Part shown: piece after piece, positions 18,093 through 18,986 of the stretch
Numbering within the stretch: position 1 is the first letter of the stretch
Layout: the number at the start of each line of letters is the position of its first letter
Virus record (IMG/VR): IMGVR_UViG_2541047759_000001
Source: a virus
Lineage: Duplodnaviria > Heunggongvirae > Uroviricota > Caudoviricetes
DNA: 64,000 bases
Direction: 5' to 3' (one strand)
Position numbers and translations under genes: made by a program
The notes under the pieces: generated by a model
What the model was told of the DNA's origin: nothing
The model's database searches: none
Seen by the model: only the letters and a program-made list of their open reading frames with translations

Positions 18093-18986
18093 GTGATGAA
18101 TAAAAAATATGAACTGGTTGTTAAGGGGATAAATAATTACGGGGATAAGGTTACTGTTACTGTGAAGTCGGAAGGTGACGGGCAAGCGTCGCTGTTGTTG
18201 CCAGATGTGGCGATTAGTCTTGACCGTACTGAAGGTGCCACGCTGGAGTTTTACGAAGCTGAGGCGAAAAAGCAGGCGAAGCAGTTTTTCATGGATGTTG
18301 CTGCCGGGTTATGTGAATGGAACGAACCGTTGCCGGAAAAGCGCCCCGTAATTTTAGAGGCGCAGGATGTGTTGATAACCTACAAAGGAAAGCTACCGGG
18401 AAGAATTACTTGTTCTCTGAAGATGCCGCCGTCAACACTGCGGTCAGAAAAAGATGATGTTGAATCACGTATTGAAAAACTGGAGAGCTACGTCGTTGAG
18501 CTGAATAAGAAATGGTCGATATTGGTGCCTTCTGGCGATGAAAAGCAGTTTGCTGCGTTTGACGATTATTGTCGGAAAGTGATGAGCAGAAATCTCGCAG
18601 AGTGTTTCAGTATTCATAATGATAATTTCAGTGACCCGGAATGGGAGTGTAACCGGCCATCCTTTGTTGTATCCGGTGATGCTGGGAAAATAACCATCTC
18701 AGAAAATGGGAAAGTAACACCTCCATCGCACCAGCACAGTGAGGAGCTCATTGAATTTGCCATTGATTACCTGAAGAACAATAAAAAGCAGGGGCTGATG
18801 AAGCGCGTTGGCCGTTGCATGGGATATCTTCAGGTAGCCGCTGAGATTGAAGCGCTGGCCAGTGGTGCTGATAAGGATGCAATTGTGCGGGAGGCTCTTC
18901 TTCGTGATTTTAATACTCCACCCTTTAAAAAAGTGCCGGCTTACTGGCTTCATCCGGGGCTGACTTATCTTAAAGTGCGTATTTAG
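18093..18986 (+). CDS. Hypothetical 297-aa protein inserted between holin and endolysin
   Basis: Long ORF starting MMNKKYELVV, tightly coupled to the holin stop; no signature recognised. Confidence 0.55.
   Translation: MMNKKYELVVKGINNYGDKVTVTVKSEGDGQASLLLPDVAISLDRTEGATLEFYEAEAKKQAKQFFMDVAAGLCEWNEPLPEKRPVILEAQDVLITYKGKLPGRITCSLKMPPSTLRSEKDDVESRIEKLESYVVELNKKWSILVPSGDEKQFAAFDDYCRKVMSRNLAECFSIHNDNFSDPEWECNRPSFVVSGDAGKITISENGKVTPPSHQHSEELIEFAIDYLKNNKKQGLMKRVGRCMGYLQVAAEIEALASGADKDAIVREALLRDFNTPPFKKVPAYWLHPGLTYLKVRI

Follow-up and report, generated by a model that had tools for sequence, protein, structure and literature searches.

Results

The lysis cassette of the Caudoviricetes record IMGVR_UViG_2541047759_000001 (IMG/VR), analysed here as one stretch of 64,000 nucleotides (nt) that we call the window, carries a long open reading frame (ORF) between the genes of an S21-type holin (S) and an R21-like signal-anchor-release (SAR) endolysin (R). 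The frame is open on the plus strand from a GTG at 18093 to a TAG ending at 18986, over 297 codons. As the initial annotation had described, it starts one base after the holin stop codon (TAA, 18089-18091) and ends 36 nt before the endolysin ATG (19023). Its proposed product of 297 amino acids (aa) should be shortened by one residue: the true start is almost certainly the ATG at 18096, 4 nt past the holin stop, which gives 296 aa, and the GTG is an unlikely alternative. We chose this ATG because all homologues begin there, because the relatives have GCG or ACG just before it, codons that do not serve as starts, because the Shine-Dalgarno (SD) site GGGGAGAG lies 7 nt upstream of it, and because the Pfam and PHROG matches open at residue 2 of the GTG form.

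Hundreds of homologues, together with pairwise ratios of non-synonymous to synonymous substitution rates (dN/dS) of 0.16-0.37 in the C-terminal third, show that this is a real coding gene and not a chance ORF. The identical 894-nt sequence is found in many complete E. coli chromosomes, under the NCBI pipeline name "YdfR family protein", and at least 1000 public contigs encode exactly the same 296-aa protein. Three ORFs that overlap the gene on the minus strand (18699-19136, 18465-18617 and 18614-18763) had no family matches, and in the slot between S and R no Rfam family and no flanking repeats were found.

The protein matched Pfam DUF1327 (PF07041, the YdfR family) with a score of 137.9 bits, the cut-off being 25 (E 1.3e-40; aa 2-101 on profile positions 1-88 of 93). 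Over its whole length (aa 2-297 in GTG numbering) it matched phrog_1085 of PHROGs v4, a family of unknown function (profile 1-296 of 296, E 3.1e-190). By these matches, the gene is an ordinary member, in the long form, of an already catalogued family. The initial annotation had left the function unknown, and no sequence or fold search gave one. There was no informative match in NCBIfam, PADLOC or, beyond DUF1327, Pfam, and all nine PHROG matches carried the label 'unknown function', none belonging to the lysis category. PDB sequence profiles searched from two alignments returned at best a PARP-1 fragment over the coiled-coil region (E 0.024), which was uninformative. The best entry in PADLOC-DB 2.0 was PbeC (E 0.018, 11.3 bits), again over the coiled-coil stretch, and four relatives yielded nothing there.

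Module borders were set by mapping 120 homologues with BLAST and from alignments A1-A4. On this mapping, the protein falls into three separable modules: an N-terminal DUF1327 module (N), a variable coiled-coil middle (M) and a conserved C-terminal module without a Pfam match (C) (Table 1). The N module is 47% identical to residues 1-74 of YdfR from E. coli K-12 (BLASTP), and the short YdfR forms of 103-114 aa terminate in or near the linker that follows it (alignment A1). The C module is the best-conserved part. It contains the motifs LMKRxGRCMGYLQVAAEIE and DFxxPPFKKxPxxWxxPGxxYLKxRI, and H214, L226, G239, R240, L245, Q246, A248, P276, K278, W284, P287 and Y291 are invariant or nearly so. Pairwise dN/dS against five relatives was lowest in this module, with 0.54-0.73 in N and 0.19-0.69 in M, values that show the gene to be under selection, most strongly in C, where the selection is purifying.

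The modules also occur in other combinations. The commonest form in the family is N alone. M+C was found as a stand-alone 185-aa gene straight after the holin, with no DUF1327 gene (loci L010-L012), and as a 213-aa gene behind which DUF1327 is encoded on its own, in a gene of 75 aa (L006-L009). Two N alleles exist: that of the window, and that of sister 296-aa proteins such as P0022, whose N domain is 81% identical to K-12 YdfR and is joined to nearly the same M+C as in the window. Tandem N-N duplications of the DUF1327 domain inside one ORF were observed as well (P0047, P0054; census class 'NN').

The hydropathy scan revealed neither a transmembrane segment nor a signal peptide in the protein, the maximum over 19 aa being 0.75 compared with 1.7 for the holin transmembrane domain and the SAR segment of R; the protein should therefore act in the cytoplasm. 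AlphaFold2 (AF2) models built from E. coli sequences only had a mean predicted local distance difference test score (pLDDT) of 52. A second run on a 62-sequence alignment including Salmonella homologues raised the C domain to 67-92 (residues 190-272) and the overall mean to 59.8. The N domain was modelled with moderate confidence (pLDDT 60-82) as strands 5-14, 18-27 and 38-43 and a helix 50-76, and the M module, with low confidence, as helices 122-143 and 149-171. In the C domain, three short strands (190-208) precede helices 212-228, 234-255 and 262-272. Confidence was low for the conserved C-terminal tail, as might be expected if this segment folds only when bound to a partner.

The initial annotation regarded the ORF as an unusual insertion between genes that are normally adjacent, a view that did not survive comparison with other phages. 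For a census of the slot, 80 IMG/VR phage contigs were fetched by a holin at least 97% identical to that of the window, and R was in range in 71 of them. The slot was occupied in 59 of the 71 loci (83%), with more than 20 length and module classes, and S was directly followed by R in the other 12 (17%), as in phage 933W. The arrangement of the window (931-nt gap) was seen nine times. The same layout, with a DUF1327 gene as occupant, is found in K-12 Qin (essQ, the holin gene, then ydfR, then rrrQ, the lysozyme gene) and in phages BP-4795 (114 aa), PhiR5_1 (211 aa), Stx2 phage 86 (268 aa), Stx2_95 (329 aa), mEp460 (104 aa), Evi (72 aa) and 2H10 (183 aa); H-19B also carries an N-module coding sequence. 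Of 5426 complete E. coli genomes, 2653 (49%) contained N-module DNA, with at most 8 copies in one genome, and 777 (14%) contained C-module DNA, with at most 5. An occupied slot is the common state for S21/R21-type cassettes, and the slot is recombination-prone. The gene comes close to what the annotation said would refute its view, namely homology to a routine phage protein that is invariably present here: it is a common occupant, but neither a structural role nor one in lysis is known for its family, and cassettes of the 933W type are empty.

The two states of the slot differ in the leader and allele of R. Where S and R are adjacent, R uses the SD site embedded in the holin gene and has the MSRKLRYGLS-type allele (12 of 12). 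In occupied cassettes, R stands behind an AT-rich leader ending in ATATCC, which lacks an SD-like motif, and has the MN[TA]KI[KR]YGLS allele (59 of 59); R of the window, with MNTKIKYGLS, carries the allele that goes with occupied cassettes. The last codons of the holin gene supply the SD site to whichever gene follows: R in 933W, the DUF1327 gene in the window, and the stand-alone M+C gene in L006 and L010. By this comparison there are two cassette haplotypes, and in occupied cassettes the strong ribosome-binding site passes from the endolysin gene to the slot gene.

From 14274 to 21300, no promoter-like site was detected on the plus strand. Nor does a convincing terminator follow the slot gene, the sole candidate being a weak stem-loop (18945-18962) with a poor T-tract inside the 3' end of the ORF. 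The gene should therefore be part of the Q-dependent late transcript, and its product, relying on the SD site in the holin gene, should appear late in infection, at the same time as the holin. This agrees with the co-expression with the lysis genes anticipated in the initial annotation. The same annotation proposed a moron. The guanine-plus-cytosine (GC) content of the gene, 43-49% compared with 53-56% for the holin and endolysin genes, is in keeping with that idea, but an autonomous moron does not fit a gene with neither promoter nor convincing terminator of its own and a holin-embedded SD site, and we rejected the classical moron on these grounds.

Table 1. Features of the lysis cassette and its surroundings in the window.
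Feature	Positions	Strand	Evidence and remarks
Q antiterminator gene	12511-13332		
tRNA-Met(CAT)	13476-13551	+	just past Q
tRNA-Arg(TCT)	13652-13726	+	just past Q
STnc100 (Rfam small RNA)	14425-14614	+	full-length match, 132 bits against a gathering score of 47; ends in a strong terminator-like hairpin, 14584-14605
NanS-p-like protein, 658 aa	15221-17197	+	DUF1737, SASA sialate O-acetylesterase and DUF6645
DUF826 gene	17380/17554-17799	+	phrog_311/8301
S21-type class II holin (pinholin family), 71 aa	17876..18091	+	Pfam PF04971 Phage_holin_2_1, 1.5e-32; phrog holin families
Shine-Dalgarno site GGGGAGAG in holin 3' end	18081..18088	+	junction comparison, 9 loci
Slot gene, long-form YdfR-family protein, 296 aa	18096..18986	+	33 kDa, isoelectric point about 6, soluble
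N module, aa 1-76	18096..18323	+	DUF1327 core: three beta-strands and a long helix
Linker, aa 77-118	18324..18449	+	basic, predicted disordered, conserved among E. coli forms, AF2 pLDDT <50
M module, aa 119-184	18450..18647	+	acidic helical, coiled-coil-like ESRIEKLESYVVELNKK, then a highly indel-prone stretch
C module, aa 185-296	18648..18983	+	conserved alpha/beta domain, no Pfam family (alignments A3/A4)
Antisense ORF, 125 aa, inside the endolysin gene	18983-19360	-	phrog_22558, 6.5e-65, unknown function
AT-rich 36-nt spacer before R (...AATATTTAATATATCC)	18987..19022	+	no Shine-Dalgarno-like motif
R21-like SAR endolysin (lysozyme) R, 177 aa	19023..19556	+	Pfam PF00959 Phage_lysozyme, 2.4e-24
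phrog_1115 gene	19680-19895	+	
Rz i-spanin, cassette end	20038..20511	+	Pfam PF03245, 2e-47
Rz1-like ORF embedded in Rz	20264-20449	+	ORF list
ORF with TonB_C domain, 126 aa	20768-21148	+	TonB_C, 1.1e-12; just past Rz/Rz1

The identification of the flanking genes as pinholin and SAR endolysin was confirmed. The holin matches a Pfam family described as 'Bacteriophage P21 holin S', with a dual start (MYQMEK, M1 and M4) and one strongly hydrophobic 19-aa window. The endolysin has a Gly/Ala-rich hydrophobic N-terminal segment typical of SAR endolysins (residues 9-27, LSAAVLALIAAGAPAPDIL; Kyte-Doolittle hydropathy 1.74). Formation of pinholes by the holin and release of R from its SAR anchor are predicted from these family and sequence features. 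Antisense to R lies an ORF whose match, phrog_22558, is probably a family built from spurious gene calls over R. Small conserved genes precede the holin (DUF826) and follow R (phrog_1115), and at the Salmonella locus L016 the DUF826 gene is located after Rz instead. The TonB_C ORF past Rz/Rz1 has an N-terminus that by eye resembles a lipoprotein signal peptide; 933W has bor there, on the opposite strand, and a 'TonB family protein' gene recurs in the related prophages L007, L009 and L013.

The wider gene order is that of a lambdoid prophage: S24 repressor, DUF968 protein, Q antiterminator, two tRNAs, NanS-p-like esterase, DUF826 protein, lysis genes, terminase and tail genes. The two tRNA genes have the position of ileZ/argN/argO in 933W. 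Between them and the esterase gene no ORF of at least 150 aa was found; the stx genes, which occupy this place in Shiga toxin (Stx) phages, are therefore absent. By its gene order, the window is a lambdoid prophage of E. coli with the layout of an Stx phage and no stx. An STnc100 small RNA gene is predicted between the Q/tRNA region and the esterase gene, and the NanS-p-like gene itself is the accessory gene that Stx phages usually carry downstream of stx.

Beyond E. coli the family is narrow. A profile search with M+C returned only 38 representative clusters among 1.84 billion, all of the same family, and a scan of 185,579 species-representative genomes gave three loci, all in Escherichia or Shigella. 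The distant members are "hypothetical proteins" of Salmonella enterica of 212-338 aa (e.g. P0165, P0132 and P0138). They start with a DUF1327-like region that scores under the Pfam threshold, followed by an ERVAxLEKRL helix, a middle part that varies, and a C module about 40% identical that keeps the same invariant residues. The three-part plan is thus kept between Escherichia and Salmonella at 25-31% overall identity, and in both the gene stands in the late operon beside the lysis genes. Unlike the gene of the window, the Salmonella gene precedes the holin instead of separating it from the endolysin, and is not translationally linked to it; the order is Q, HicAB, homologue, often a small convergent ORF, holin, lysozyme and Rz, and the homologue adjoins holins of two Pfam families (PF16080 and PF04971). 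In these searches the family is confined to enterobacterial lambdoid prophages, and what is conserved appears to be its place in the late operon next to the lysis cassette, rather than the exact slot between S and R.

Small convergent ORFs of 86-106 aa were observed after the long YdfR-type gene at many E. coli and Salmonella loci: L002 4085-4399 (-), L018 5771-6091 (-), L003 3852-4112, L006 4902-5189 and L014 5849-6145. That of phage 86, gp06, is 37% identical to the ORF of the Salmonella locus L018, and the two share a C-terminal motif (ELSxLDCxWD...RxFxxLS). These ORFs have no Pfam match and may be a conserved partner gene of the long form; the window has none.

Discussion

Comparison with known members of the family defines what is distinctive about the gene of the window. 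K-12 YdfR (P76160) shares with it the Pfam family, the genomic position and the start geometry behind the holin, but is a 103-aa protein made of the N module and a short helix, to which the window protein adds the linker, the coiled-coil middle and the 112-aa C module. Further close counterparts are gp05 of phage 86 and the gene of Stx2a phage Stx2_95, in the same slot and with the same N and C modules, the latter 82-93% identical. Their middle modules differ by insertions, deletions or replacement, and in phage 86 the slot gene is followed by gp06, which has no equivalent in the window.

The literature on the DUF1327/YdfR family is very sparse: of the papers searched, one mentions DUF1327 and one offers functional data on YdfR. 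In the passages covered, a published comparison of Stx phage lysis cassettes (PMC8136144) does not discuss the slot gene. The functional data come from Gopel et al. 2026 (PMC13232886). In that study, a two-hybrid screen with RNase G (Rng), the paralogue of RNase E, as bait yielded residues 1-72 of K-12 YdfR. In the follow-up two-hybrid assays, YdfR 1-72 gave signals with RNase G and with both RNase E constructs, higher with RNase E, and bound Rne 1-597, the catalytic N-terminal half of the enzyme. Strep-tagged YdfR co-purified FLAG-tagged Rne 1-598 together with DNase-resistant nucleic acid, that is, RNA. Overproduction of YdfR had little effect on transcriptome or growth, and ydfR was essentially silent in K-12 under standard conditions (PMC13232886).

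From these observations and our own, we tentatively propose, as a reading that we consider possible rather than probable, that the slot gene encodes a soluble late accessory protein whose N module contacts RNase E and/or RNA, whose C module is separable, and on which lysis does not depend. The N-terminal DUF1327 module would dock onto RNase E of the host, at its catalytic half, and/or bind RNA. This step is extrapolated, with low confidence, from the K-12 homologue, which is 47% identical in N to the window protein and 81% identical to the sister proteins with the same C part. The coiled-coil middle might oligomerise, and the conserved C module might serve as a separable effector or partner-binding domain, again at low confidence. 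The protein would then tune RNA decay late in infection, either by shielding late phage transcripts or by redirecting RNase E, and would form no part of the lysis apparatus. The lysis machinery would not need the gene, since 933W-type cassettes are without it and are assumed to lyse normally.

Such a role would bring the YdfR family to a target that it may have in common with the phage modulators of RNase E, T7 gp0.7, T4 Srd and phiKZ Dip, and with the RNase E adaptor RapZ. RapZ binds the N-terminal domain of RNase E and RNA, as has been reported for K-12 YdfR. None of these proteins is homologous to the slot protein, however, and they are early or host proteins, whereas the slot gene is late.

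A role in the timing of lysis is rather unlikely in our view, although the position of the gene invites it. Made in step with the pinholin, the protein could bind the charged cytoplasmic tail of the holin or the SAR endolysin before its release, and thereby delay triggering or make it sharper. Alternatively the gene could act in cis: by capturing the holin SD site and leaving R without one, it would lower the ratio of endolysin to holin. Cytoplasmic lysis regulators encoded next to holins exist in T4 (RIII) and P1 (LydB). Their likeness to the slot protein is positional only (a soluble protein, encoded beside the holin and made at the same time), and we found no sequence or PHROG relationship between them. 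The tight junction speaks for timing: in E. coli the gene always starts 3-5 nt past the holin stop and uses the SD site within the holin gene, and the R leader lacks an SD motif in all occupied cassettes of the census, compared with a strong SD site in all adjacent ones. The Salmonella homologue, too, directly adjoins the holin, although it lies upstream there, translationally unlinked and beside holins of two families, which argues against a timing role. The same conclusion is suggested by the census, where the holin is at least 97% identical throughout while the slot contains N, M+C, N+M+C or nothing; there is therefore no co-variation with the supposed partner. Nor did the protein match any PHROG of the lysis category. 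The Keio deletion of ydfR was a hit in a genome-wide screen for envelope integrity (PMC3879167 supplement), which would favour a lysis role. Read-through from the kan cassette into rrrQ, the SAR endolysin gene, could explain the phenotype, and the envelope defect is possibly a polar artefact.

We consider it distinctly unlikely that the slot gene encodes a conflict protein, that is, a fast-evolving modular factor for anti-defence or for competition between phages, shuffled in an arms race. The polymorphism would be in line with this idea: more than 20 slot classes, tandem N-N duplications, up to 8 copies per genome, elevated dN/dS in N and two N alleles only 47% identical, in addition to a GC content below that of the flanks and a very narrow taxonomic range. 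Counter-defence genes, however, are usually expressed early, and the slot gene is expressed late; it lacks a promoter that could drive it in the lysogen, and standard growth leaves K-12 ydfR essentially silent. The defence role suggested by the initial annotation found no match among the PADLOC defence-system models either. The virulence role suggested there fared no better: the protein has no signal peptide or transmembrane segment pointing to secretion, and a secreted virulence factor was rejected for that reason.

A decaying mosaic remnant, a non-functional fusion left by a recombination hot spot, is highly improbable and was rejected on ORF integrity and dN/dS: although truncated variants are many and the Prokaryotic Genome Annotation Pipeline (PGAP) tags the identical copy of strain 7/2 as 'incomplete, missing C-terminus', all 296 codons of the frame are open, many genomes carry it with 100% identity, the C module is under clear purifying selection, the three-part plan is conserved between Escherichia and Salmonella, and the flag stems from a pipeline comparison with other family members and not from a disrupted frame. 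The RefSeq/PGAP pseudogene in strain 7/2 (L013 9004-9339, equal to 18096-18431 of the window) spans codons 1-112 only, and the C-terminal 184 codons have no annotated feature in most genomes. Since the frame is intact, the pseudogene label on the long form looks like a systematic annotation artefact.

Taken further, the proposed contact with RNase E leads to a more general picture that we hold to be doubtful as a whole. Slot genes would be a hypervariable, domain-shuffled family of late cytoplasmic proteins in which DUF1327 hijacks RNase E and the C module is a new effector or partner-binding domain, or in which the protein is instead a soluble timing factor for the pinholin and SAR endolysin. 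If the RNase E version were true, the family would constitute a previously unrecognised class of phage RNA-decay modulators, carried by about one in two E. coli genomes.

Conclusion

The YdfR/DUF1327 family is very common, yet almost no literature deals with it, and the slot gene lies inside the lysis cassette of Stx-type phages, beside the genes that control toxin release. Our analysis clarifies that the long form is intact, that its C module is a separate selected domain common to Salmonella, and that the strong SD site passes from the endolysin gene to the slot gene when the slot is filled. The dissection into three modules, the slot census, the pattern of SD hand-over and the likely RefSeq pseudogene artefact came out of the same work. 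Interest in the family would rise if the link to RNase E or a role in lysis timing were shown for it. All in all, these results offer handles for experiments on how Stx phages time lysis and on the decay of RNA in them.

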